DNA of 64,000 nucleotides from Candidatus Doudnabacteria bacterium. GTDB lineage: Bacteria; Patescibacteriota; Doudnabacteria; UBA920. A program made the translations under genes and the position numbers. This document shows positions 7,159 to 64,000 of this stretch, piece by piece (positions within the stretch are counted from its first letter, which is position 1; every line of letters starts with the position of its first letter). The stretch lies in NCBI GenBank assembly GCA_963768175.1, contig CAVYGQ010000001.1, positions 574,305 through 638,304 on the forward strand, in the 5' to 3' direction. A model generated the notes under the pieces. The model ran no database searches. It was not told where the DNA came from and saw only the letters and a list, made by a program, of their open reading frames with translations.

Positions 7159-7214
7159 CCCAAAAATTCCTCGTCTTGTTAAGATGATAAAATGTTAAGA
7201 TGATAAAATGTTAA
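7159..7214. repeat. three tandem copies of the 16-mer GTTAAGATGATAAAAT
   Basis: Seen directly. A degenerate copy of the same motif lies at 63262-63318. Confidence 0.7.
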
Positions 7215-7246
7215 GATGATAAAATGATGGGTTAATTAATCTTGTG

Positions 7247-9744: not shown

Positions 9745-9788
9745 AAAAACAAAAATCACATTATTTAACGGCCGTTAAATAATGTGAT
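9745..9788 (-). terminator. rho-independent terminator of metK
   Basis: Perfect palindrome CACATTATTTAACGGCCGTTAAATAATGTG followed by a U-run on the minus strand. Confidence 0.6.
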
Positions 9789-11071: not shown

Positions 11072-11335
11072 AAAAAACCGCCTATCGGCGGGTTGTAAAA
11101 TTATCTTCCCCGCTCGGGGCTAGAAGTAGCACCTTTCGTATGGGGGTCCCCAAAAATTAGGAGCGCAATTTCCGTAATGCTTTACGGAAATGAGCACGGA
11201 TTTTTGGGGAGAGGAGCAACTGCGGAGAGCTAAGTTTCCGATTTTTATCGGAACGAAAGCTCGAAGCAAGTTGCGACGAGGTTGCTGGCAGGTCATTGGG
11301 CTAGATCCCTCACTGCACTCTTGATAAATTATTTT
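11072..11335 (-). promoter_or_regulatory. SAM-I (S-box) riboswitch with a greatly enlarged P3 region and an intrinsic terminator, in the metK leader
   Basis: Minus-strand RNA contains TTATCAAGAGTGCAGTGAGGGATCTAGCCCAATGACCTGCCAGCAACC and GAAAGGTGCTACTTCTAG core motifs, a P4 hairpin CCCCGAGCGGGG, then the terminator CCGCCGATAGGCGGTTTTTT. Confidence 0.7.
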
Positions 11336-12923: not shown

Positions 12924-13154
12924 AAATTTTCCTTCCTTTTCCGCCAGTCGTTCGAGACCCTGAAGGGTTCTCAGACCCTGAACGGGAGGCGGATCCCGCT
13001 TTGCGGGACTGTTTTAATTATTTATTGATGTTAGCTAACTAATTATACGTTAGTTAGCCAAAATTTGGTGCTTTATGCTTAAATCGGCATTATTTACCAA
13101 ATCTAATCATATTATAGACTAATTTCAACAAAAATTCCAGTTATGCCAATAAAA

Positions 13155-14968: not shown

Positions 14969-15010
14969 CGGCGTCATCCTGAGTCCGCCTCCGGCGGACG
15001 AAGGATCTCT
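14969..15010. repeat. copy of the dispersed GTCATCCTGAG...GAAGGATC hairpin repeat family
   Basis: GGCGTCATCCTGAGTCCGCCTCCGGCGGACGAAGGATCTC. Relatives at 15092-15163, 28031-28068, 31909-32007, 52334-52475. Confidence 0.6.
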
Positions 15011-15091: not shown

Positions 15092-15163
15092 GTCATTGCG
15101 AGGAGTCAGACGACGAAGCAATCTGACGCCAATGGCGTCATCCCGAGTGCATCCGAGGGATCT
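15092..15163. repeat. composite repeat: GTCATTGCGAGGAG...CGAAGCAATC hairpin plus GGCGTCATCCCGAGTGCATCCGAGGGATC unit
   Basis: The first half matches one arm of the large palindrome at 32776-32870. The second half matches the 28031-28068 and 52334-52475 units. Confidence 0.6.
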
Positions 15164-17674: not shown

Positions 17675-17995
17675 GTCCCCTCCTTTCTCTCGGGGAATCA
17701 AAACCCTAAAATCAAGATACTGATTCCCCGAGAGGCAATTGTGTTGTATATTTTACTTCTGTTTTTATCTTTTTTCAACCCCATTAGAAACTTTATAAAA
17801 GTTCGGTTTTATTTTATTCATTATTTTTATCGGCAAAGCATTTGTTTTCAGTAAACCAAAGTTTAGGAAGTTTCTAACGGGGTCAACCACCATTTTCCTC
17901 CTACAAAAAAATGGGGGAATAAAACTGGTCATTAAAATAAGATAACTCATTTAACGACCAAATTTCTTCCCCCATTATTTGTTCAAAACTTCGGT

Positions 17996-18032
17996 CACAT
18001 TAAATAACGGCCGTTATTTAATGTGATTTTTA
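17996..18032 (+). terminator. orphan plus-strand intrinsic terminator
   Basis: Perfect palindrome CACATTAAATAACGGCCGTTATTTAATGTG followed by ATTTTT. No plus-strand CDS lies upstream. Confidence 0.4.
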
Positions 18033-24978: not shown

Positions 24979-25911
24979 CTACACTTGGCACTTGGGACAA
25001 AAACTCCCTGTCCTTCCGCCTATTTTAGTTGCCTCGATGATACTGCCACATTTTTTGCACTTCTGCCCTTTGCGGCCGTAAACAAAATGGAACTTCCCCA
25101 TTTGCCCCCAGCTGCCGTCAGTGCGCACAAAGTCGCCGACACTGGATCCTTTGGCTTTTATAGCTTTAATAAGCACAAGCTTTATCCATTTATATATGGC
25201 TAATAATTCTTTGCCGCTCAACGATGAAACCTTACGCGTTGGCCTGACGCCGGCGTGGAATAAAATTTCATCGGAGTAAATATTGCCGATGCCCGCCACA
25301 AAATGGCTGTCCATAAGCAGTTGCTTAATGGAAATTTTTCTCTTGTTGACTTTTCGCGCGGCCGCGCGAAAAGTCAACAAGGTATATTTTTTATCCAACG
25401 GCTCGGGACCGTATTCCTGCAATTCTCTGACTCGATCAAGCTCGCTCTCGCGCACTAACTTTAAGTAGCCGAATTTCCGAATGTCGTTGAAATAAAGATG
25501 GCTACCGTCTGTAAATGTAAAAACCACGTGCGTATGTTTGGAAGGCAAAAGTTCCAGCGGCGCCGTCAGCTTATTTAGTAATCGAAACTTTCCGCCAGTT
25601 CTTTTCCGTAAAGCTTTGTCCTCAAAAATAAACTGCCCGGTCATTTTAAGGTGGGCCAGCATAAAAAACGGACCCGAAAGATTGAATATCAACAACTTCG
25701 CCCGACGCTTAACCGATATAATTTTTTTTCCTTTTAGTAAACTTATAAACTTATCAGCCGACCGCTTATCGGCTTTCCTGATATTACTGGCGACTCCCGG
25801 GCCGACGGCAACCATTTTTGGCGCGTTAACCACAACCGATTTTATTGTCCGGTTTTTTAATTTGCGGTTAAGCTCGCCGGCGATAGTTTGGACTTCGGGA
25901 AGTTCAGGCAT
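24979..25911 (-). CDS. fpg: formamidopyrimidine-DNA glycosylase
   Basis: MPELPEVQTIAGEL N-terminus, H2TH region, C-terminal CKKCG...CPKCQ zinc finger. Confidence 0.85.
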   Translation of the reverse strand: MPELPEVQTIAGELNRKLKNRTIKSVVVNAPKMVAVGPGVASNIRKADKRSADKFISLLKGKKIISVKRRAKLLIFNLSGPFFMLAHLKMTGQFIFEDKALRKRTGGKFRLLNKLTAPLELLPSKHTHVVFTFTDGSHLYFNDIRKFGYLKLVRESELDRVRELQEYGPEPLDKKYTLLTFRAAARKVNKRKISIKQLLMDSHFVAGIGNIYSDEILFHAGVRPTRKVSSLSGKELLAIYKWIKLVLIKAIKAKGSSVGDFVRTDGSWGQMGKFHFVYGRKGQKCKKCGSIIEATKIGGRTGSFCPKCQV

Positions 25912-27869: not shown

Positions 27870-28124
27870 TTTCTGTCAATATATTCCTGCTCTCCGGGTT
27901 CCATAAATTTTCCTTTCTAAATTTACTTTTTTATCGCCTTTATACTATATTACTCTCTCTATGCTTGTCAAAAATTAAAAAAACTCCCCATTTGGGAAGT
28001 TTCTGTTAAGGTCATTATTGCTCAGTTAAGAGATCCTTCGCTCGGATGCACTCGCTCAGGATGACGCCGAGGTATGGAGTTTACAGCGTGTAATCCGCGT
28101 AAATATCCGCGTGTAATCCGCGGT

Positions 28125-30962: not shown

Positions 30963-31000
30963 TTGTTGATTTTTTGCGCGGCCGCGCAAAAAATCAACAA
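30963..31000. repeat. 38-bp perfect palindrome TTGTTGATTTTTTGCGCGGCCGCGCAAAAAATCAACAA
   Basis: Immediately upstream of the comEC start. A near-identical palindrome lies inside fpg at 25343-25380. Confidence 0.7.
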
Positions 31001-31002
31001 AA

Positions 31003-31224
31003 TTAAATTCTTATTTTTAACACTTTTTGTTTGGATTTCCCGCCGCGAACTAAAATGACTTTGGATTTGCTTACTCTAAAATACTCCGCCAGAGCTTCCA
31101 CTACCGTTTTGTTGGCCTTGCCTTCAAGCGGCGGCTGGCTAACATAAACGTGCAGGGTGCCAGATAGATCTTTTTCAACCCTGTGCTTTTTGGAACTTGG
31201 ATGAACAATTACGCTGATTTTCAT
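31003..31224 (-). CDS. DUF167 (YggU) family protein
   Basis: 73 aa; LEGKANKTVVEALAEYF...VRGGKSKQK pattern. Confidence 0.7.
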   Translation of the reverse strand: MKISVIVHPSSKKHRVEKDLSGTLHVYVSQPPLEGKANKTVVEALAEYFRVSKSKVILVRGGKSKQKVLKIRI

Positions 31225-31688
31225 CGTAATTTGTCCTTATATTTTTCTAAAAAGAACGGCAATTGGGAATGTTTCAACTCCGGCAAATTATCTAACTTAA
31301 ACCAGCCAATTTCGTCAAACTTATGCGGCTCGCCGTTTTTGGCCTGCCTTGGGTCAACCAAGACTTTAAAATCTAGGCTCACCCAATGGGTCGGCCGACC
31401 TAGGTGGCTACGGTGCACGTCACGGAACCCCAAAAACTCAAAACTTAAGACATCCGCGCAATATTCTTCCTTGATTTCCTTGCGCAAAGTATTTTCCGCC
31501 GTGTCGCCAAACTCCAAACCGCCGGCGCCGCAATCCCAGGCTCCGTGTTCATCCCGGGCTTGTTTGCCTCTCTTTTGCATTAAAAAATTTCCTTTGCCGT
31601 CGTGGCAAAAATAAACTACGGAAACGCCGATGAAATCTACGCCTTTACGTAGTGGCTGCAAGGGCGCGCTGTTTGTTTGATTTTGCAT
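31221..31688 (-). CDS. NUDIX hydrolase
   Basis: Nudix box GGLEFGDTAENTLRKEIKEE. Start probably the internal Met. Confidence 0.7.
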   Translation of the reverse strand: MQNQTNSAPLQPLRKGVDFIGVSVVYFCHDGKGNFLMQKRGKQARDEHGAWDCGAGGLEFGDTAENTLRKEIKEEYCADVLSFEFLGFRDVHRSHLGRPTHWVSLDFKVLVDPRQAKNGEPHKFDEIGWFKLDNLPELKHSQLPFFLEKYKDKLR

Positions 31689-32268
31689 ATAAGACAAATT
31701 GATATGCGCCAAAAAGCGCAACCGTATATCCTAAATCCCCAAACAAGGTGCCGCGGAAAAACGGCAGGCCGTTAACGTACGCCGCCATAATCCCGATTAA
31801 ATTATGGCTATATGAGCCGTAAAAAAAGGCAAAGTTGGTAACCAAAAAGAATATGGCCGATGAAAGCAAGGACGAGCCGATGATTTTTGCCCACTTCACA
31901 ACGGCGTCATCCTGAGCCCATCCAAAGAAAATTCCCAGCGGGCGAAGGAACTCTTTCTTAGATTGAGATTCTTCAGCCTCAGATGCATTCGGCTTCAGAA
32001 TGACGCCATTGGTAGCAGACTTTTTAATCCACAGCCCAAACAACACACCAACCAAATGCGAAGCGTAAACCGCAACCATTAGCGGCCAGGCAAAAAACCC
32101 CAAAAATATATCGCTAATAAATCTCACGGCTAAAGTCAGGCCGACTGATTTTTTCCAGCCCAAATTCGCCGCGCTAAAAATCGCCAAAGCCGTTATGGGG
32201 GCGGCGTTGGGCATATGGGGGATAAATCTGGCGGCTATTGCCGCTATAATCAAAAAGTAGATAATCAT
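31645..32268 (-). CDS. polytopic membrane protein carrying an in-frame inverted-repeat-bounded insert
   Basis: 207 aa, 5-6 TM helices. The segment 31909-32007 is bounded by GGCGTCATCCTGAGCCC / GGCTTCAGAATGACGCC inverted repeats. Confidence 0.45.
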   Translation of the reverse strand: MIIYFLIIAAIAARFIPHMPNAAPITALAIFSAANLGWKKSVGLTLAVRFISDIFLGFFAWPLMVAVYASHLVGVLFGLWIKKSATNGVILKPNASEAEESQSKKEFLRPLGIFFGWAQDDAVVKWAKIIGSSLLSSAIFFLVTNFAFFYGSYSHNLIGIMAAYVNGLPFFRGTLFGDLGYTVALFGAYQFVLYAKSNKQRALAATT

Positions 32269-37084: not shown

Positions 37085-37245
37085 TGATTTTAATATTGTT
37101 CAAAATTCTAAATTCTAAAACCTAAAATCTAAACAAATAATAAATTCTAAAATACAAAATATAAACCAGACACTAATCTATTTAAAATTTATTTTTTATA
37201 ATTTAGGATTTGTTTAGTTTTTAGAATTTAGGCTTTAGAGTTTCT
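37085..37245. repeat. AT-rich inverted-repeat element (CTAAAATCTAAACAAAT ... ATTTGTTTAGTTTTTAG)
   Basis: Copies at 51243-51400 and 57685-57835. Confidence 0.6.
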
Positions 37246-49975: not shown

Positions 49976-51223
49976 TTACGGCAAAAACGATTTAAACCAC
50001 TTTCTTACCTTAGCCACGCTTTGGTTGCTTAAGATTCTTTTAATCGCGTCTCCCAAGCTCGCGCCGGAAGGGGAAGCATATTTGTTGCCCCATAAAACCA
50101 ATCCCGCGGCCGTGGCAAAACAGGGATCGTTGACCCGGTCAATAATTGTCGTGACATTTTCCGGCCGGCCCAAAACAGAAGGCAGGCGCAGATGCTTTTT
50201 GGAAAACTCCACCACGCCCGGCAAATTGGCGCCGCCGCCGGTTAAGACAATGCCAGCCGGCAGTTTGCCGTCGCGCTGGATTTTTTTTAGCTCGCTGTTA
50301 ACATAAGCAAAAATTTCCTCCAGCCGCGCTTCAATAATTTCCACCACATATCCGCGTATTGTTGCCTGGTCCTCGTTTTTGTCCAGGCGGGACAAATCTA
50401 TTTCCTCGTTTTTATCCACGGCTTTAAGGTCGCAGTGGCCAAATTGCAGTTTAACTTTTTCCGCGGTTTCAATACTGCACCGCAGGCCAATGGCAATATC
50501 GTTGGTAATGTGGCTGCAGCCCAAGGGCAAAACCGCGGTGTGCAGCAAATCCCCTTCCTCATAAACCGCCATTCCGGTGGTGCCGGCGCCCAAATCCACT
50601 ACGCAGACGCCCAAATCTTTTTGGCGTTTTTTTAACACGCTCTCGGCCGCGGCGCAAGGAGCCAAGACTAAATCTTCTATTTCCAAACCGGCCTGCATAA
50701 TGGCTTTGGTCAGATTTTTTACAAACGGCACGCCGGCTTGGACGATAATCGTGTCCACTTCCAAGCGGATACCGCTCATGCCTAAAGGATCTTTAATGCC
50801 GGTTTGGCCGTCTAAGGTAAAGCTTTTGGGGAAAACATGCAGGACTTCCTTATTGCTGGGAATGGAGATGGCCTGGCTGGCGTCTATGCAGCGGATAATG
50901 TCGTTCTCGGAAATTTCCCCGTCGGCGCGGGAAACGGCAATTACGCCGTGGGACTGCAGCGAGGAAATATGGTTGCCGCCCACCGAAACATTGGCCGAAA
51001 CCACTGGCACTCCGGTCATGCGCTCAACTTTTTCCAGGCCCGAGGATATTGCCGAGACCGCTTCTTCTATGTCCACAATTACGCCGCGGCGCATGCCAAA
51101 ACTGGGCGCTTCGCCGGCGCCGATAATGCTAAAACTGCCAGTTTCCCTATCCAGCTTGGCCTGCACCACGCGCACACTGGCCGTACCTACGTCCACTCCA
51201 ACGATATATCGTTCCTTCGCCAT
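49976..51223 (-). CDS. ftsA: cell division protein FtsA
   Basis: Actin-fold motifs VGVDVGT, VVDLGAGTT, LTGGGANLPG. Confidence 0.9.
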   Translation of the reverse strand: MAKERYIVGVDVGTASVRVVQAKLDRETGSFSIIGAGEAPSFGMRRGVIVDIEEAVSAISSGLEKVERMTGVPVVSANVSVGGNHISSLQSHGVIAVSRADGEISENDIIRCIDASQAISIPSNKEVLHVFPKSFTLDGQTGIKDPLGMSGIRLEVDTIIVQAGVPFVKNLTKAIMQAGLEIEDLVLAPCAAAESVLKKRQKDLGVCVVDLGAGTTGMAVYEEGDLLHTAVLPLGCSHITNDIAIGLRCSIETAEKVKLQFGHCDLKAVDKNEEIDLSRLDKNEDQATIRGYVVEIIEARLEEIFAYVNSELKKIQRDGKLPAGIVLTGGGANLPGVVEFSKKHLRLPSVLGRPENVTTIIDRVNDPCFATAAGLVLWGNKYASPSGASLGDAIKRILSNQSVAKVRKWFKSFLP

Positions 51224-51242
51224 AACTTTTTGTTTCGAAAGT

Positions 51243-51400
51243 TTAGTAAAAAATAAGTACCTATTTGCAAAACCCTAAAATCTAAACCTCTAAATACTAA
51301 ACAAATCGCAAATCTTAAAATATAAACTTGCCCCGTTTAAAATTTTAGCCCCAGTTTATAATTTAGAATTTGTTTAGAGTTTAGTTTTTAGAATTTAGTA
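51243..51400. repeat. AT-rich inverted-repeat element, CTAAACAAAT family copy 2
   Basis: CTAAAATCTAAACCTCTAAATACTAAACAAAT...AATTTAGAATTTGTTTAGAGTTTAG. Confidence 0.6.
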
Positions 51401-51401
51401 T

Positions 51402-51884
51402 TTACTTGAGCCGCTCCTTGAGTAGCTTTGCCATTAAAGCACCGTCCGCATTTTGGCCGACTTTGCCTTTTAACTGCCCCATAGCCTTGCCGAAATCCGC
51501 GGCGGTAAAACTGTTTCGCGCGATTATTTCATCTATTGTTTTTAAAATATCCGCTTCCGACATCTGCTGGGGCAAATAGCCTTCCAAAATTTTGGCTTCG
51601 GCCAACTCTTTTTCCGCCATCTCGCTCCGCCCGCCGGCCATAAAACCTTCCACGGCTTCTTTGCGGCGCTTGATTTCCGATTTCACCAAAGCGATAATCT
51701 CATTTTCTGTTAATTCTTTCTTGCCGGGACTTGTTTGGGATCCTTCACTTCGCTTGGGACGGCCTGCGGCCGTTTTTTCGTTTTGCAACCGAGTCTTTAA
51801 ACCGCGCAAAGTGTCTGTGGCAAGCTGGTTTCTTGCCTTCATTGCCGCGGTTAAATCGGATTCTATTTGGGATAAAGAAAGCAT
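51402..51884 (-). CDS. GatB/YqeY domain protein carrying an in-frame repeat-element insert
   Basis: YqeY family. Segment AAGRPKRSEGSQTSPGKKE is encoded by GTCCCAAGCGAAGTGAAGGATCCCAAACAAGTCCCGGC, a member of the GTCCCGAGCG...GAAGGATCC family. Confidence 0.7.
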   Translation of the reverse strand: MLSLSQIESDLTAAMKARNQLATDTLRGLKTRLQNEKTAAGRPKRSEGSQTSPGKKELTENEIIALVKSEIKRRKEAVEGFMAGGRSEMAEKELAEAKILEGYLPQQMSEADILKTIDEIIARNSFTAADFGKAMGQLKGKVGQNADGALMAKLLKERLK

Positions 51885-51928
51885 GAAGAAATAAAAATTT
51901 AAAAATCAAAGTGCAAAACGATGCTTCA

Positions 51929-51977
51929 GCATCGTCCCGAACGTTAGTGAAGGATCCCTCGCTTCGCTCGGGACGGC
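51929..51977. repeat. GTCCCGAACG...GAAGGATCCCTCGCTTCGCTCGGGAC hairpin repeat
   Basis: Outer inverted repeat CGTCCCGAACG / CGCTCGGGACG. Relatives at 52950-53025 and inside yqeY. Confidence 0.6.
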
Positions 51978-52022
51978 ATAAATGCCGTTGTTAATTTTGA
52001 TATTTACATTTTAAATTATTTT

Positions 52023-52271
52023 TTACCTCCGTCCATATCTCTTAGTCGGAACTAATTTGCCCATTTTCTTTAACTCTTCCTTTTGGGCTTTTATCTGGCT
52101 GCGCCTGCGCGCCGCCACTTTTTGCAAATTTCTGGACTTGGGCGGCTCAAAAAAACGGATTTTGCGGGCGCGAATAAGCACGCCGCTTTGTTGGATTTTG
52201 CGGTTAAATCGGCGCAATAAACTATCAAAAGATTCGTTGTCTTTTTTCTTAACTTCTACCAATGCGTTCAC
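52023..52271 (-). CDS. rpsU: 30S ribosomal protein S21
   Basis: 82 aa; FDSLLRRFNRKIQQSGVL...RRRSQIKAQKEELKK. Confidence 0.85.
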   Translation of the reverse strand: MNALVEVKKKDNESFDSLLRRFNRKIQQSGVLIRARKIRFFEPPKSRNLQKVAARRRSQIKAQKEELKKMGKLVPTKRYGRR

Positions 52272-52333
52272 TCTCCTTTCGCACTTTAAGTTATTTTGAT
52301 TATAACAAGATTAATTATTTTTGGCAAACAAAT

Positions 52334-52475
52334 TGGCGCCATCCTGAGCCCGAATGCATCTGCCTTTCGACTTTGCTCAAGACACCCTGAGCGTAGCCGA
52401 ATGGGTGAGGGCGAAGGATCTCATCAAAGGTTAAGAGATCCTTCGGTCGGATGCACTCCCTCAGGATGACGCTGA
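52334..52475. repeat. two inverted copies of the GGCGYCATCCTGAGCCCGAATGCATC...GAAGGATCTC repeat
   Basis: GGCGCCATCCTGAGCCCGAATGCATCTGCC...GAGGGCGAAGGATCTC and AGAGATCCTTCGGTCGGATGCACTCCCTCAGGATGACGC. Confidence 0.65.
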
Positions 52476-52576
52476 TGGTTAACTGATAATTAAACCAACT
52501 ATTAATATAATACAATAAAAATTACTATAACCTTGTTTTGTTATAGTTATTAATTATGAATTATTGTTATCTTCCC

Positions 52577-52912
52577 CTACTCTTCCATCAGCTTGCCGCC
52601 CAAAAGATGCAGATGCAGGTGCGGAATTACCTGGCCGCCATCTCTGCCAACGTTAAAAATCAGCTTATAGCCTGTTTCGCCAACGCCATACTTTATAGCC
52701 ATATTTTTGGCCACTACCACCATTTCGCCAACTAAAGGCTCGTCCACAGCTTCGGTGTGGGTAATGCTTAAAATATGCTTTTTGGGCACAATCAGCAAAT
52801 GCACCGGCGCTTTAGGCAAGATGTCCTTAATGACAATTAAACGCTCATTCTCAAAAAGGATTTGGGATTCAATGGTGCGGTTAATAATGTTACAAAATAC
52901 GCAATCGTCCAT
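52577..52912 (-). CDS. HIT family hydrolase
   Basis: Histidine triad HLHLHLL. Confidence 0.85.
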   Translation of the reverse strand: MDDCVFCNIINRTIESQILFENERLIVIKDILPKAPVHLLIVPKKHILSITHTEAVDEPLVGEMVVVAKNMAIKYGVGETGYKLIFNVGRDGGQVIPHLHLHLLGGKLMEE

Positions 52913-52914
52913 AA

Positions 52915-53090
52915 ATTTAATGACAAAAATTAAAAAATTAAATAAATGACAAAAACGGCAGTTTGCTGCCGTCCCGAACGGAGTGAGGGATCCCTCAACT
53001 TCGTTTCGGGACGATAGCTATTAATATAAAAATAAGGTTTATCGTTTTTATTATTTTTGCTCAATTTTGTCATTTTTGCTCATTATTTAA
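52915..53090. repeat. TGACAAAAAT inverted-repeat element (copy 2) with a nested GTCCCGAACGGAGTGAGGGATCCCTC...TTCGGGAC repeat
   Basis: Arms TAATGACAAAAATTAAAAAATTAAATAAATGACAAAA and TTTTTGCTCAATTTTGTCATTTTTGCTCATT. The 25912-26020 copy lacks the nested element. Confidence 0.6.
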
Positions 53091-53091
53091 G

Positions 53092-54394
53092 CTATCTTCC
53101 CAGCCTCTTCTTGACCTCTGATACTATTTTATCATAAGATATGATTTCCTGCATCCCGCTCTTTACATCCCGCAATATCACCATTTCTTCCATGGCCTCC
53201 TTCTGCCCCATAATTAAGGCTATGGGAGCATGAAAACTTTCCGCCTGCTTTAACTGGTTCTTGACTTCCGACGTTGCCGAAGTGGTCGTAAACGGAAATT
53301 TTTTCCGCTGTTAAATCACGGAAGAGGCGCAAAGCCTTTTTCGCGGCCAACTCGCCGAGCGGGACCAAAAAAACATCATTACTCTGTTTTTGGCTGACAA
53401 CGGTCCTGGAGTTTTCCAAAAGTTCATGGATTTTGGACAAACTGCCCACAAAACCAAAACAGCAGTAATTTTTGCCGCACAAATTTTGCATCAAGCTATC
53501 GTGATAGCCTCCCTCGCCCAAAATTATGGTCTCGCCTTTGAGCTTGGATTTAATAACCAAATTGGTTTTGCCCGATCCATCAGGACCGACGTAAAGCGGG
53601 TTCAACTGGTAAGGCACGCCCAGTTCGTCTAAAGCCTCCAAAATATTGGTAAAATGTTTGCGCGATTCCTCATCCAAAAAATCCAAAACTGTTGGCGCTT
53701 CCGAAAATAAGGCCTGACAATCTAAATTGCCGCAGCGGAACACATTTAACACCCTGCCCTGCAAATGCTCGTTGCAATTATCGCAAAGCTGATACTTTTT
53801 AGCCACCAAATAATCCTGCAAAGTTTGGCTGTAAGCCAACTGGCAGTCCTCCTTGCCAAGAGAATTAATTTCCAACACGCTGTCTTTTAAGCCTAAGCCT
53901 AGCAAAAATTCCCAAACCGAACCGATAACCTGGGCTTCAGTTAAGTGGTTAAACTGGCCAAAAACCTCGAAATTGAACTGGTAATCGGAAACTAAATTTT
54001 CGTTTTCATCGCGCTTGACCGTAAATCCCGAAGCAGCCCATTTGCTTAACGGGGATTTTTCATAAACCTTGCGCTGATAATAAGCCCGAAGCAGCCCAGG
54101 CAAAAAGTCGCCGCGGATAACGGCCTGATCCTGTTTTCTGATTTGTACCGAAAGGAAATTCTTAAGGAGTTTGGGGTTGGTCTTATAAAAATTTTCATAG
54201 AGCCGGAGGTCTTCTAATAAAGGCGTTTCCACTTTTTCAAAGCCATAAATTCTGGAAAGCTTGGTAAAACGCCTTAAAATCGCGTCCCACAAAATGTCGG
54301 TTTCGCCGACTATGTCTTCCAGAAAATCCAAACTTTGGACTTTTTTGGGAGAATACCCGGCCGCCGTACTCTGATTTTTTTTTGGTCTGCCCAT
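53092..54394 (-). CDS. hisS: histidyl-tRNA synthetase-like class II aaRS with an apparent frameshift at an A-run near 53292
   Basis: Motifs IRGDFLPGLLRAYY, ILGEGGYHDSLMQNL, FGFVGSLSKIHELL. The HisRS-like anticodon-binding C-terminus (FHAPIALIMGQKEAMEEMVILRDVKSGMQEIISYD) continues in another frame down to ~53092. Confidence 0.55.
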
Positions 54395-56103: not shown

Positions 56104-57681
56104 ATGCCATTCGGCAACAGGCTCCATCATACTATGCCGAATCTCGATTCCATTAACCCAAAAAAACCTTCCCTGCCGCCCAAAATTATAATTTCCGCGG
56201 TTCCCAACAAACCCAGGCAGGCCAGCCTGCTTGGGCGGGGGCAAAAAAAATCCGGTAGAAGAATTTTAAAAAAGGTTCTTTTGTCCGTGGTCTGTTTGAT
56301 TGTAATTTTAAGCGCAATCGTACTGGTAAGGGCGGGCAATTTATCGCAAAAAATTTTTGTCGGCCAAAAAACCACTTTTTTTGGCAAAATTGTAGATTTG
56401 ATTAGGGGTGGCGGGGACAACGGCCAGCTTATCGGCGAAGATTTGGGGCAGATTAATGTTTTGCTTTTGGGTATAGGCGGAGAAGGGCACGACGGCCCTT
56501 ACTTAACGGACACGATGATTCTGGCGCAAATCCGCCCGGACATCGGTGAAGTTACCCTGACCTCCATCCCCCGCGACTATTGGTCCGACATGCCCCAAGG
56601 CGGCCAGGATAAAATTAACTCCGCCTTTGCTTACGGGCTTGGTGAGAATATGGACTGGGACCAGGCAGGCTTATATTCCCGCGAGGTGGCGCAAAACCTT
56701 ACCGGATTGCAAATCCCCTATTTTGCCGTTATGGATTTTTCGGGGTTTGAAAAAGCCGTGGACCAGGTGGGTGGTTTGGATGTTACCGTTGACCGCACCT
56801 TTACCGACTCGCAGTACCCCGACAGCGGCACCGGCTATCTGCCCCCGATTACTTTTACCGCCGGCCCCCAGCATATGGATGGCACCCGGGCGCTGGAGTT
56901 TGTGCGCTCGCGCCACGCCGCGGGAATTGAAGGCGGTGATTTTGCCCGCAGCCTGCGCCAGCAAAAAATTATAGACGCCTTCAAGCAAAAAGCCTTAAGC
57001 GGCAACCTTATAAGCAACGCCAGTAATTTAAATTCTTTGCTGGGGATTTTTGCCGACCACTTCCACATCAATATGACGCCTTCGGAAATTTACCGGGTTT
57101 ACACCTTAACCAAAGACAAAAATATGCAAACGCTGTCTTTAAGTTTGGATCCGGATACGGGCCTTATTTGCCCCGAAATTTTGGCAAGCAACGGAGCCTA
57201 TGTGCTTACCCCCTGCCCGGGCAAAAGCATAGAGGATGTCCAAAACTTTTTCAAGAACAGTTTCAGCATCGGAAAGCTGAAATCGGAACAAAGCACCGTC
57301 TGGCTGGCCAGCTCGACCGGCAACAAGGAGGCTTACAATACGGCTTTTCGGCAGCTCACCGACGCAGGGCTAATGGTTTACCAGCTTTCTTACAGTAATG
57401 ACAATTTGCCGCAAACTATTGTCTATCAGGTTAACCCCAAACCCGCCACTACGGAGTTCATAAAAAATACCCTAAACGCGACCGAGGTAACTTTGCCGCC
57501 GCCCGACGTAACGGTCACCAAAACAAAAGTAGACGTAATTATAGTGCTGGGCCAAAACGCGCCAGTTGAGCCCGCGCCCGCTCCTTACGTTGCGCCGCCG
57601 GCAAAAGAGCCGAGCACGACCACAAGCACCTTGGACAGTACTGCTTCAACAACCACGAAGGCTTCCACAACAATGCCTTAA
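56104..57681 (+). CDS. LytR-CpsA-Psr (LCP) family cell-envelope protein
   Basis: N-terminal TM. LCP motifs LLLGIGGEGHDGPYLTDTMIL, SIPRD, RSRH. Ser/Thr/Pro-rich tail. Confidence 0.8.
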   Translation: MPFGNRLHHTMPNLDSINPKKPSLPPKIIISAVPNKPRQASLLGRGQKKSGRRILKKVLLSVVCLIVILSAIVLVRAGNLSQKIFVGQKTTFFGKIVDLIRGGGDNGQLIGEDLGQINVLLLGIGGEGHDGPYLTDTMILAQIRPDIGEVTLTSIPRDYWSDMPQGGQDKINSAFAYGLGENMDWDQAGLYSREVAQNLTGLQIPYFAVMDFSGFEKAVDQVGGLDVTVDRTFTDSQYPDSGTGYLPPITFTAGPQHMDGTRALEFVRSRHAAGIEGGDFARSLRQQKIIDAFKQKALSGNLISNASNLNSLLGIFADHFHINMTPSEIYRVYTLTKDKNMQTLSLSLDPDTGLICPEILASNGAYVLTPCPGKSIEDVQNFFKNSFSIGKLKSEQSTVWLASSTGNKEAYNTAFRQLTDAGLMVYQLSYSNDNLPQTIVYQVNPKPATTEFIKNTLNATEVTLPPPDVTVTKTKVDVIIVLGQNAPVEPAPAPYVAPPAKEPSTTTSTLDSTASTTTKASTTMP

Positions 57682-57684
57682 AAA

Positions 57685-57835
57685 AGTAAAGTCTAAATTC
57701 TAAACCTCTAAAAACTAAACAAATACCCAAAATCTAAAATACCAAAAGTTTAAACCGTTTAAAAATTTGGAGATTTAAACTTTGTTTAGCATTTAGATTT
57801 TAGTGTTTAATTTTTTATCAAAAATCGCAAAAAAC
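57685..57835. repeat. AT-rich inverted-repeat element, CTAAACAAAT family copy 3
   Basis: TCTAAATTCTAAACCTCTAAAAACTAAACAAAT...CTTTGTTTAGCATTTAGATTTTAG. Confidence 0.6.
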
Positions 57836-61030: not shown

Positions 61031-61609
61031 ATGAAACTAATTGTCGGTTTGGGAAATCCCGGGGAGAAATATAAAAATACCCGCCACAACGCGGGGTTTA
61101 TGGCTTTAGATTACCTCTTAAGCTTTGACGGCTTTATGGACGCCAAACCCGGCCACGAATTCAAGTCGGATATTTTCTCCTGGTCTAATAAGATCCCGAG
61201 CGGAGTCGAGGGACAAAATTCCAGCGGCGAAAAAATATTATTCGTTAAACCGCAGACTTACATGAACGACAGCGGCCAGGCGTTAAAAGTTATTTGCAAT
61301 TTTTATAAATTGGATTTAAGCAAGGACCTATTGGTTATCCACGACGATACCGATTTGCCCCTTGGCGAAATCCGGATAACCAATTCGTCCTCATCCGCCG
61401 GACACAACGGCGTCCAAAGCATTATAGATAACATCGGCACGCAGGACTTTAACCGCGTACGCATAGGCGTAGACACCAGGCAATCGCGGGACGATATGCC
61501 GACCGAAGCTTATGTCCTGCAAAATTTTACGGACATTGAGCAAAAAAAACTCCGGGAAGAAGTGCTGCCGAAAGTTGAAACTGAAATTAAAAAATTTATC
61601 CGAGGATAA
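61031..61609 (+). CDS. pth: peptidyl-tRNA hydrolase
   Basis: MKLIVGLGNPGEKYKNTRHNAGF. Confidence 0.9.
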   Translation: MKLIVGLGNPGEKYKNTRHNAGFMALDYLLSFDGFMDAKPGHEFKSDIFSWSNKIPSGVEGQNSSGEKILFVKPQTYMNDSGQALKVICNFYKLDLSKDLLVIHDDTDLPLGEIRITNSSSSAGHNGVQSIIDNIGTQDFNRVRIGVDTRQSRDDMPTEAYVLQNFTDIEQKKLREEVLPKVETEIKKFIRG

Positions 61610-63201: not shown

Positions 63202-63261
63202 CAAAAGTCATATTACCATTTTATCATACTAACATTCTAACATTTTAACATGCATAGCGAA

Positions 63262-63318
63262 AGCAGATACAGGCATGATAAGATGATAAAATGATAGGAT
63301 GTTAAGATGTTAAAATGA
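63262..63318. repeat. degenerate tandem AAGATGATAAAATG-type repeat
   Basis: GATAAGATGATAAAATGATAGGATGTTAAGATGTTAAAATGATA; relative of 7159-7214. Confidence 0.5.
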
Positions 63319-63322
63319 TACT

Positions 63323-64000
63323 ATGCCTAAACACTGGAAAATCGCAGCTCCCGTTTTTGCAATCATCGTGGTAATCACGGCTGTGGCATACTACAAATCC
63401 CCTAGCTTGTTTGGCCGGCGCACCTCCCTGACCAAAATGCCCGATACCTCCGGCGGCAGCCTGCAAAGTTACTTAGACTTGGCGCAAAGTTTAAACCCGC
63501 GCGGCACCAATGCCACCACTTCCGTGACCTTTTTGGCCGTGGGCGACATTATGCTTAGCCGAAACGTAGCCATGACAAGTTTTAAAGCTCTGGATGTCGA
63601 TCTGCCATTCCGGCAGATGGCAGACGCTCTTCAGTCTACGAATTTTAATTTTGCCAATTTGGAAAGTCCGTTTTACCCGGCTGAACATCCGTGCATTGCG
63701 AGCGGCACCGAAGGAATCGTCGGCGGACATTCTATGATATTTGGAGCGCCATGCAATATGGTCCATGGCCTAGTTGATTTTAATTTTAAAATTTTAAATC
63801 TTGCCAATAACCATGCTTTTGACCAAGGCCTAGCGGGCGTGGATATCACCCGATCAACTCTAGATGATTTAGGTCTTACCCACGAGGGCACCGGAGACAA
63901 TCTTGATGAAGCCTGGACGCCGGCAATTGCAACTGCCAACGGCATTAAGATTTGTTTTGTCGGCGCTTCATACGCTTCCGTAAATGACGGCGGGAAAACC
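63323..64000 (+). CDS. CapA/PgsA-family metallophosphatase (poly-gamma-glutamate/capsule biosynthesis-like), 3'-truncated by window end
   Basis: Open frame from ATG 63323 to the window end (226 codons). N-terminal TM; VGDIMLSR...LANNHAFDQG motifs. Confidence 0.6.
   Translation, partial: MPKHWKIAAPVFAIIVVITAVAYYKSPSLFGRRTSLTKMPDTSGGSLQSYLDLAQSLNPRGTNATTSVTFLAVGDIMLSRNVAMTSFKALDVDLPFRQMADALQSTNFNFANLESPFYPAEHPCIASGTEGIVGGHSMIFGAPCNMVHGLVDFNFKILNLANNHAFDQGLAGVDITRSTLDDLGLTHEGTGDNLDEAWTPAIATANGIKICFVGASYASVNDGGKT

Follow-up and report, generated by a model that had tools for sequence, protein, structure and literature searches.

An extra in-frame segment in the yqeY gene of a Candidatus Doudnabacteria bacterium is most probably an old, decaying copy of a CGTC-type repetitive extragenic palindrome (REP), tolerated in a disordered loop of the encoded protein and spread between lineages by recombination. 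The gene lies in a 64,000-nt stretch of DNA (the window; contig CAVYGQ010000001.1, positions 574,305 to 638,304). An earlier note on this stretch, made from the letters alone, had claimed that yqeY contains an in-frame copy of a repeat and that intergenic members of the same family lie nearby. Loci and proteins of relatives are referred to by L and P numbers, respectively.

Anatomy of the yqeY insert

On the coding strand of yqeY, positions 51760-51722 read GTCCCAAGCGAAGTGAAGGATCCCAAACAAGTCCCGGC, translated as TAAGRPKRSEGSQTSPGKKE, just where and with the peptide that the earlier note had given. The insert shares the unit TCCCAAGCGAAGTGAAGGATCC, a small hairpin and a CGTC tag with the neighbouring intergenic palindromes, and this likeness reaches upstream of the range first noticed, through the common hairpin and tag (ACGGC..GCCGT-CCC). 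Intergenic copy A (Table 1) contains the perfect consensus, GTCCCGAGCGAAGCGAGGGATC, which the core of the yqeY copy, GTCCCAAGCGAAGTGAAGGATC, matches at all but 3 of its 22 positions. As read from the sequence, all six frames of the repeat are free of stop codons.

Across copies, each half of the palindrome is a hairpin that rises from a base stem TCCY/RGGA through two G.A pairs in tandem to an apex (G/A)C-GNA-G(C/T), which in the consensus unit is exactly GCGAAGC. In the unit within the window yqeY, the base stem is TCCC/AGGA with one C.A mismatch, AA/GA replaces the tandem GA/GA, and the apex is GC-GAA-GT. Because of the stem mismatch, the AA/GA replacement and folding no better than chance, the window copy is regarded as an old, decayed half-element. 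The accessory hairpin is the sole element predicted to fold in it; this hairpin is conserved in L001, L087, L211 and L013, and its antisense strand scores as terminator-like.

In other yqeY genes, the base stem is TCCC/GGGA with apex GC-GAA-GC (L009) or TCCT/AGGA with apices AC-GTA-GT (L087), AC-AAA-GT (L001), GG-CTTTGA-CC (L013) and GGC-GCAA-GCC (L211). The segments of L009, L211 and L088 fold better than shuffled sequences (z from -2.1 to -3.1). The encoded peptide varies (RPKRSEGS, RPEQSEGS, RPEALTEGS, RPEAQAEGS, RPDPALNAGEA) while the hairpin scheme of the DNA persists. The conserved entity is the DNA and not the YqeY peptide, because the same motif is read in another frame in the pth gene (see below) and is non-coding in many phyla.

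Of the palindrome, the left arm alone is recognisable in yqeY; of the right arm, a remnant is left. In L087 and L088, the stretch following GGATCT (CTTCCATCAGGGC and CTTCCGTCGGGCC, respectively) is still similar to CTTCGCTCGGGAC, the outer end of the inverted arm, and is predicted to pair with the left arm. This likeness and pairing suggest that the ancestral yqeY insert was a dimer, later internally deleted.

The host protein and the position of the insert

The 160-aa product is a member of the YqeY family: PF09424 matches it over the full length and above the gathering score (E=1.1e-31, 110.3 bits, cut-off 27, profile positions 2-143), the fold is all-helical, and the YqeY structure 1NG6 in PDB matches at E=1.9e-16, with 8XJE and 8XJG matching as well. 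The AlphaFold model contains seven helices at a mean predicted local distance difference test score (pLDDT) of 87. Helices span residues 20-40 and 60-83, and residues 41-59 in between form a low-confidence coil with pLDDT <50 at residues 50-54. From this coil, the insert is predicted to be a disordered surface loop between helix 2 and helix 3.

The gene belongs to a co-directional cluster, hisS-like / HIT / rpsU / yqeY / ftsA, the synteny of which is kept in relatives. The spacer between hisS and HIT (52913-53131) contains only a REP dimer (copy B, Table 1) and no gene for a 23S rRNA intervening-sequence protein; in relatives L085 (276-662) and L210 (84-470), a gene of this kind (PF05635) is located between hisS and HIT.

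Insert states among orthologues

The basal form of YqeY is 146 aa long and has the loop QNEK-ISKM-RDLTE, as in the nearest relative (P0006/L003), which is insert-free and 89% identical to the window protein outside the loop. Where the basal form has five residues (ISKMR), the window protein has 19 (TAAGRPKRSEGSQTSPGKK). At the DNA level, GAA AAG ATA TCC AAA ATG CGG GAT TTA in L003 corresponds to GAA AAA ACG GCC GCA GGC CGT CCC AAG CGA AGT GAA GGA TCC CAA ACA AGT CCC GGC AAG AAA GAA TTA in the window. The orthologue alignment proposed in the earlier note as a check supports the reading as an insertion, and the protein is indeed longer than a typical YqeY, although by 14 aa over its closest relatives and not by 12.

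Clear anchors were available in 119 homologues. In 57 of them the loop has its basal length (LRGLK...KRRKE = 37 residues), and the remaining ones contain extra residues, all at one identical position. The segment is absent in the outgroups Actinomycetota, Dadabacteria and B. subtilis 1NG6. About 20 proteins carry an insert of type I (GRPERSEGS-like) and about 22 an insert of type II (SRGAGSASGG-like). In type II, 30 nt are cleanly inserted right behind the K-M/I codon, with junctions ATG^TCCCGC...GCCGGA^CGC, and these form two 6-bp/3-nt hairpins, TCCCGC-GGA-GCGGGA (apex GCGGAGC) and TCCGCC-TCY-GGCGGA. The type II 30-mers of L085 and L008 are identical at 29 of 30 positions in yqeY genes that are 65% identical (P=4e-5), and in the variant of L210/L212, hairpin 2 is retained by a compensatory swap. 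In P0004 and P0108, a further 12-aa element is nested at the GGATC centre.

In a tree of the masked YqeY core, the insert states are interspersed. Type I and insert-free forms are paired in P0002/P0025 (L001/L084) and P0029/P0109 (L009/L209), both at 95% identity outside the loop; type II and insert-free forms in P0003/P0010 (95%) and P0008/P0023 (94%); and types I and II in P0018/P0033 (97%). The loop between helices 2 and 3 is a recurrent insertion hot spot. According to the earlier note, an equivalent native segment in orthologues would speak against an insertion, and superficially the approximately 20 orthologues with GRPERSEGS-type peptides are such a case. They nevertheless carry the same repeat-derived allele. 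Its occurrences are interspersed with insert-free proteins of 89-95% identity in the rest of the sequence, and its DNA keeps the hairpin architecture.

Elsewhere in the window, what looks like a structured GC-rich leader upstream of an open reading frame (ORF) start (12949-13012, minus strand) forms GTCCCGC-AAA-GCGGGAT followed by a long-range CCGCC...GGCGG pairing. It has TCCCGCAAAGCGGGATCCGCC in common with the type II yqeY insert from other genomes, matching the beginning of that insert at 21/23 nt.

Exchange of insert alleles

Over their first 237 nt, L211 (type I) and L212 (type II) differ at 64 positions, and over the last 246 nt they match throughout (P about 1e-20). In window/L003 (P=9e-6), L001/L084 (P=4e-10) and L009/L209 (P=3e-6), mismatches cluster immediately downstream of the insert, within 24-36 nt. 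These mosaics and clusters show that insert alleles move by homologous recombination, in short patches, with type I travelling together with its own flank (ELTExEIIAL). All type I copies agree in reading frame, position, accessory hairpin and flank, which argues for one origin followed by their spread.

Relatives of the insert in the window

Both intergenic family members named in the earlier note are present (copies A and B, Table 1), each a complete palindrome with GGATCC at its centre. Copy A, with the palindrome CGTCCCGAACGTTAGTGAAGGATCCCTCGCTTCGCTCGGGACG, folds as a long hairpin (-27.3 kcal/mol, z=-4.1) and its flanks are terminator-like on both strands. Copy B folds likewise (-37.0 kcal/mol, z=-5.6), its minus strand being terminator-like. 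The accessory hairpins read ACGGCAT-TT-ATGCCGT in copy A and ACGGCAG-TTTG-CTGCCGT in copy B. Small hairpins abutting the REP dimers (51914-51939, 51972-51989 and 52952-52975) are followed by T-runs and resemble intrinsic terminators on the sense strand after rpsU and hisS; each dimer appears embedded in (bi)directional terminator-like sequence.

Table 1. Coordinates of the host gene, the yqeY insert and related elements in the window
Feature	Positions	Strand	Remarks
yqeY coding sequence, insert host	51402-51884	minus	ORF of 160 aa; Pfam PF09424
Segment in place of the native 5 codons (ISKMR)	51717-51773	minus	codons T38-K56, net +14 codons; from DNA alignment with L003 and L001
Accessory hairpin of the yqeY copy, ACGGCC-GCA-GGCCGT	51759-51773	minus	3' CGT belongs to the CGTC tag
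REP unit in yqeY, CGTC-CCAAGCGAAGTGAAGG-ATCC	51738-51761	minus	encodes RPKRSEGS; decayed hairpin
Putative remnant of a second (inverted) unit or spacer, CAAACAAGTCCCGGCAAGAAA	51717-51737	minus	unrecognisable in the window copy
Copy A, rpsU-yqeY spacer	51914-51989		inverted dimer 51933-51976 (centre GGATCC) between two small hairpins with T-runs
Copy B, spacer of hisS-like gene and HIT gene	52955-53022		inverted dimer 52970-53013; accessory hairpin 52955-52972
Composite of sister subfamily (GGCGTCATCCTGAG...CGAAGGATCTC), HIT-rpsU spacer	52334-52472		one dimer
Intergenic singlets of sister subfamily (GGCGTCATCCYGAG...CGARGGATCTC)	14972-15010; 15136-15162; 28030-28066		three singlets
33-nt in-frame insert in pth (61031-61609, plus)	61190-61222	plus	same hairpin family, second in-frame copy
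~100-nt in-frame element in DUF6580 membrane-protein gene (31645-32268, minus)	31905-32005	minus	third in-frame element

A census of the family, which the earlier note had suggested together with coding phase, yielded 8 sites in the 64 kb of the window (from a contig of 949 kb), 5 of them intergenic and 3 intragenic. All 5 intergenic sites are situated between co-directional genes. A search for the core with <=4 edits gave 17 matches in 1.36 Mb (the window and related loci) versus 1-3 in shuffled sequences. Within the window, GTGARGGATCC was found 7 times against 1.0 expected, and GTCCCRARCG had four exact matches, all inside 51751-52980. With one mismatch allowed, the latter word was not enriched (15 vs 12.2 expected), so exact matches alone are informative. 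A generic scan for CCYGA-hairpin-GARGG likewise gave no excess (52 matches vs 34-51 in shuffles), and of its matches only those with the full flanks (C)GTC...GGATC belong to the family. No Rfam family was found over the repeats, either in the whole window at gathering thresholds or at 51200-53200 with E up to 10, where only chance matches appeared. In the sister subfamily, the apex of the singlet at 14972 is a TCCGCC-TCC-GGCGGA hairpin.

The intragenic copy in pth reads AAG ATC CCG AGC GGA GTC GAG GGA CAA AAT TCC (peptide KIPSGVEGQNS) and holds a well-formed unit, GATCCCGAGCGGAGTCGAGGGAC, in a reading frame differing from that of yqeY. Neither Pth structures in PDB nor the nearest representative (P0241) contain this insert, and about 12 syntenic pth genes of Doudnabacteria lack it as well. 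Elsewhere in Patescibacteria, Pth proteins contain repeat-like inserts at the same and at another loop, for example SAKGGSAAGG, PLLEKEGLGGV and DSRLRGND. A comparison by eye of the insertion points in yqeY and pth (AAAATG^CGCGAT vs GCAAAC^GGCGAC) concerns two sites, a sample too small to be informative.

The DUF6580 element belongs to the CGTCAT subfamily, has terminal inverted repeats GGCGTCATTCTGAAGCC / GGCTCAGGATGACGCC and encodes the peptide GVILKPNASEAEESQSKKEFLRPLGIFFGWAQDDA; it is related to the intergenic composite in the HIT-rpsU spacer. By length, DUF6580 homologues form two groups, one of 168-173 aa and one of 186-237 aa. In their loop WIKKSxNHRWxKI, dozens of different repeat-derived peptides occur, published signatures of the CGTC-1 type included.

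Relation to known repeat families

CGTC-tagged REPs were described by Di Nocera, De Gregorio & Rocco (2013, BMC Genomics 14:522, PMC3733652) from 5 phyla, Patescibacteria not among them, and include Neisseria dRS3 and Rickettsia RPE-4/RPE-6. They are short (~20-40 nt) stem-loops with a terminal CGTC (variants TGTC/CCTC) and a short tail, occurring mostly as inverted pairs foldable as one long hairpin. Most lie between co-directional genes, near 3' ends; some are intragenic and encode 7-30 residues, with peptide signatures such as VIPAKAGIQ and DSRLRGND, and no dedicated transposase is known (PMC3733652).

The family described here resembles them in the CGTC tag, the inverted dimers, the placement between co-directional genes and the intragenic copies, and both VIPAKAGIQ and DSRLRGND recur in DUF6580 and Pth inserts of Patescibacteria. 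The tag was found in all five units: yqeY gcCGTCCC, A(-) gcCGTCCC, A(+) atCGTCCC, B(+) gcCGTCCC and B(-) atCGTCCC; in the sister subfamily it reads ggCGTCATCCTGAG. Copies A and B pair into one large stem-loop each, and multiple copies, mostly intergenic and some intragenic, are dispersed within the window.

In contrast to the 8-9 Watson-Crick pairs and 4-5-nt loop of published CGTC REPs, the unit here has 8 stacked positions (TCCC-GA-GC / GC-GA-GGGA), two of them G.A mismatches in tandem, and a GNA loop of 3 nt. Within the window, the CGTCAT subfamily alone has A-T at the first two positions of the stem; it can be read as ATCCTGAG-CGAAG-CGAAGGAT (8 + 5 + 8, A-T first). The yqeY/A/B subfamily is without the leading A-T, and the TC of its CGTC tag is able to form the first pairs of the stem. 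The tails are ATC or TCC, not CCA as published, and the dimers are spacerless, their tails overlapping in the shared GGATCC centre. Further differences are the low copy number, the accessory hairpin overlapping the tag on each unit, and the host phylum, Patescibacteria (Candidate Phyla Radiation).

When metagenomes were scanned with GTCCYGARCGNAGYGARGGATC, at least 120 stretches were obtained from contigs of 34-73% GC, so the 22-nt core motif is not specific to this lineage. Among the matches listed, the typical form is a non-coding inverted pair, tgtCGTCCTGAGCGAAGCGAAGGATCT...AGATCCTTCGC..CTCAGGACGaca, with spacers of 10-30 nt; the apex variants are GCGNAGC or ACGNAGT, and about half of these matches read tgtCGTCC.

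Rickettsia palindromic elements (RPEs; RPE-1 and others) reportedly occur in frame in many unrelated protein genes, as is said to have been described by Ogata et al. in Science in 2000. RPE-1 is 100-150 bp long, encodes 30-50 aa, resides in alpha-proteobacterial hosts and is presumed to be selfish or neutral. Like RPEs, the yqeY insert is a palindromic repeat in frame, in a reduced genome, at a surface position compatible with the fold. Reuse of one loop by different elements and recombinational exchange of alleles are, on the other hand, not part of the RPE description. Membership in the RPE-1 type was rejected on size, as the yqeY insert adds a net 42 nt and its unit measures ~24 nt. The one element that comes near the size of RPEs is that in DUF6580 (~100 nt), and the likeness to them is functional (in frame, permissive loop) and not one of membership.

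GTAG REPs/REPINs are reportedly mobilised by REP-associated tyrosine transposases (RAYTs), a view attributed to Nunvar (2010) and to Bertels & Rainey (2011). Their inverted doublet is likely to be the mobile unit and singlets are its decayed remnants, and the Y1 transposase gene is flanked by the repeats. In Opitutus terrae, GTAG REPs are intragenic in >60 genes (PMC3733652). The family of the window is similar to them in its small imperfect palindromes, inverted doublets and intragenic copies, and differs in its tag, which is CGTC where theirs is GTAG with a dedicated Y1 transposase gene.

The d(GCGNAGC) mini-hairpin, a GNA triloop with two closing pairs, is extraordinarily stable (Hirao and co-workers; review PMC13037366). 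It is a physical motif and not a genetic element, and the apex of the unit matches its sequence exactly, which suggests that the unit may act as single-stranded DNA or RNA.

The insert can also be compared with the GC clusters of yeast mitochondrial DNA, which are mobile, polymorphic among strains and spread by gene conversion, with an in-frame cluster in var1. As in that case, GC-rich palindromic mini-elements in an AT-rich genome are occasionally found in frame in a protein gene; the yeast clusters are, however, organellar, unrelated in sequence and of different size.

Other classes were rejected. No direct repeat flanks type I or type II inserts, as would be expected of miniature inverted-repeat transposable elements, and 19 residues fall far short of the ~130 aa minimum of a mini-intein, with no Rfam match at 51200-53200 in favour of an intron. 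A hammerhead-like reading of CUGAG...CGAAGG fails as the UGA of the catalytic core is missing, and a kink-turn as there is no 3-nt bulge. Our literature search found no matches to the exact core sequences and no paper joining REPs with the Candidate Phyla Radiation.

Origin of the insert and alternative explanations

In the model we propose, the unit is an element of ~24 nt with a CGTC tag, a hairpin with TCCY/RGGA base, tandem G.A pairs and a GCGNAGC apex. Its intergenic form in the source genome would be two units back to back around GGATCC, with a small accessory hairpin before each. One such element, probably a dimer which later lost most of its right arm, would have entered yqeY in an ancestor among Doudnabacteria-like Patescibacteria, landing at the codon boundary that forms the helix 2 / helix 3 loop. 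The insertion might have been tolerated because its length kept the frame, the repeat was free of stops and the site was a disordered surface loop. The protein would have gained a flexible RPERSEGS-type extension, presumably neutral, as a function of the peptide need not be assumed. Subsequently, the insert allele, along with ~30 nt of its own flank, may have moved from one lineage to another through homologous recombination in short patches, so that forms with and without the insert alternate among near-identical genes. The same loop would have independently acquired the type II double hairpin and the nested inserts.

Several observations weigh against this model. The window copy folds no better than shuffled sequences (z=-0.16), has one arm with 19/22 consensus positions, and recent mobility is not demonstrable from it. 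For type I, neither a target-site duplication nor an empty/filled pair with exact element ends was found, and ISKMR is replaced, not merely interrupted. No transposase turned up for type I, the ORFs of the window not having been screened for the Y1/IS200 type. The copy number is low (about 8 sites per 64 kb, 17 core matches in 1.36 Mb of related DNA), and conservation of the type I core barely exceeds that of the remaining gene (P=0.02-0.3), so constraint at the DNA level is unproven. Finally, a strict pattern search in 1.4 Mb of related loci gave yqeY as the sole coding host, which, together with the reuse of one loop, is not the simplest prediction of random insertion plus drift.

As for alternatives, the yqeY hairpin might be a domesticated REP, kept as a nucleic-acid signal in decay, processing or translation of the rpsU-yqeY mRNA or as a DNA site. 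This would agree with the hairpin architecture accompanied by paired changes in several orthologues, with the significant folding of L009, L211 and L088, with the type II insert being better conserved than its host gene and undergoing the compensatory swap in L210/L212, and with the terminator-like accessory hairpins and T-runs of copies A and B; moreover, many REPs have been argued to act as RNA elements (Di Nocera et al., PMC3733652). Yet more than half of the orthologues, some of them 95% identical, lack any insert, the window copy has itself lost the hairpin, and the paired differences may reflect source subfamilies, as GTCCCGAG..GAGGGATC and GTCCTGAG..GAAGGATC both occur in metagenomes. 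We consider such domestication improbable. The inserts might also have arisen in place, as small perfect hairpins formed de novo when template switching or fold-back synthesis occurred at a fragile site in replication or repair, and resemble REPs by convergence on very stable GNA-loop hairpins. Many tiny hairpins with 3-nt loops are indeed present in the yqeY loop (GGCC-GCA-GGCC, TCCGCC-TCT-GGCGGA, TCCGCC-AAA-GGCGGA, CCGGC-GCC-GCCGG), the accessory hairpin of L013 is built on native codons (GCC AAA + GGC), target duplications were not seen, and de novo REP formation was left open by Di Nocera et al. (PMC3733652). However, a 22-24-nt unit with CGTC tag and tandem GA is too close to copies in the same genome and in other phyla, as is the type II 30-mer (29/30) between genes just 65% identical, for us to grant a local origin more than a slight chance.

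That the segment is a native adaptation of the protein, such as a flexible linker or interaction motif resembling the repeat by coincidence, can hardly be believed. An exposed loop could carry a motif, and the GRPERSEGS-type peptide does occur in ~20 orthologues in one frame and at one position. Nevertheless, the segment is missing from all outgroups and from proteins with 89-95% identity outside the loop, the DNA motif recurs in another frame in pth and outside coding sequence in many phyla, and the peptide varies freely while the hairpin scheme persists in the DNA. We thus favour the decaying in-frame REP copy as the explanation of the yqeY segment.

Other repeats and structures in the window

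A SAM-I riboswitch match (51.4 bits) was found at 11098-11330 on the minus strand, spanning 233 nt versus 108 positions of the model; the aptamer seems to be extended by ~125 nt with hairpins of its own inside a variable stem. A repeat copy suspected at the ends of this match was rejected, as the words in question are the conserved GAGGGA...GCCC core of the riboswitch. AT-rich inverted-repeat blocks of TAAATTCTAAA-like words occupy gene spacers at 51270-51403 (yqeY-ftsA), 37100-37243 and 57673-57815. Analogous AT-rich palindromes (AACAATTAACAATTTACAATTAACG...) surround a GC-rich central hairpin in the rpsU-yqeY spacer of L001 and L085. Tandem arrays with an 8-nt period (TGTTAAGATGATAAAA-like) are present at 7161-7242 and 63260-63341 and are partly inverted copies of each other. 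Two pairs of near-identical perfect palindromes, 25336-25394 / 30963-31014 (TTGTTGACTTTTCGCGCGGCCGCGCGAAAAGTCAACAA) and 9751-9787 / 17995-18031 (TCACATTATTTAACGGCCGTTAAATAATGTGA), are unrelated to the CGTC family and probably represent terminators or another repeat family.

Implications

Intragenic insertion of REP- or RPE-like repeats is already known; the phylum and the host gene are new. The repeat explains the anomalous length of a conserved gene in a housekeeping operon, and the range of CGTC-type REPs is extended to the Candidate Phyla Radiation. For annotation, peptides such as RPERSEGS, SRGAGSASGG, VIPSASEGS and DSRLRGND in proteins of Patescibacteria should be taken as repeat-derived and not as functional motifs.

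A bolder proposal, which we find doubtful though worth stating, is that a few landing loops in proteins of Patescibacteria (YqeY helix 2/3, DUF6580 WIKKSxNHRW and Pth) are specifically colonised by REP hairpins, with the cassettes recombining. If so, insertion would be a targeted, homing-like process on single-stranded DNA, recognising the tandem-GA/GCGNAGC hairpin shared across phyla, for which we know of no enzyme. REPs would then constitute a systematic source of protein-length variation in reduced genomes.

Orthologues that are 94-97% identical and exhibit three insert states at one codon boundary offer a system for studying the insertion, loss and exchange of CGTC REPs, its value lying in the combination of hot spot and cassette exchange. 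Such a system could also address the constancy of the 22-nt GCGNAGC-based core in genomes of 34-73% GC.

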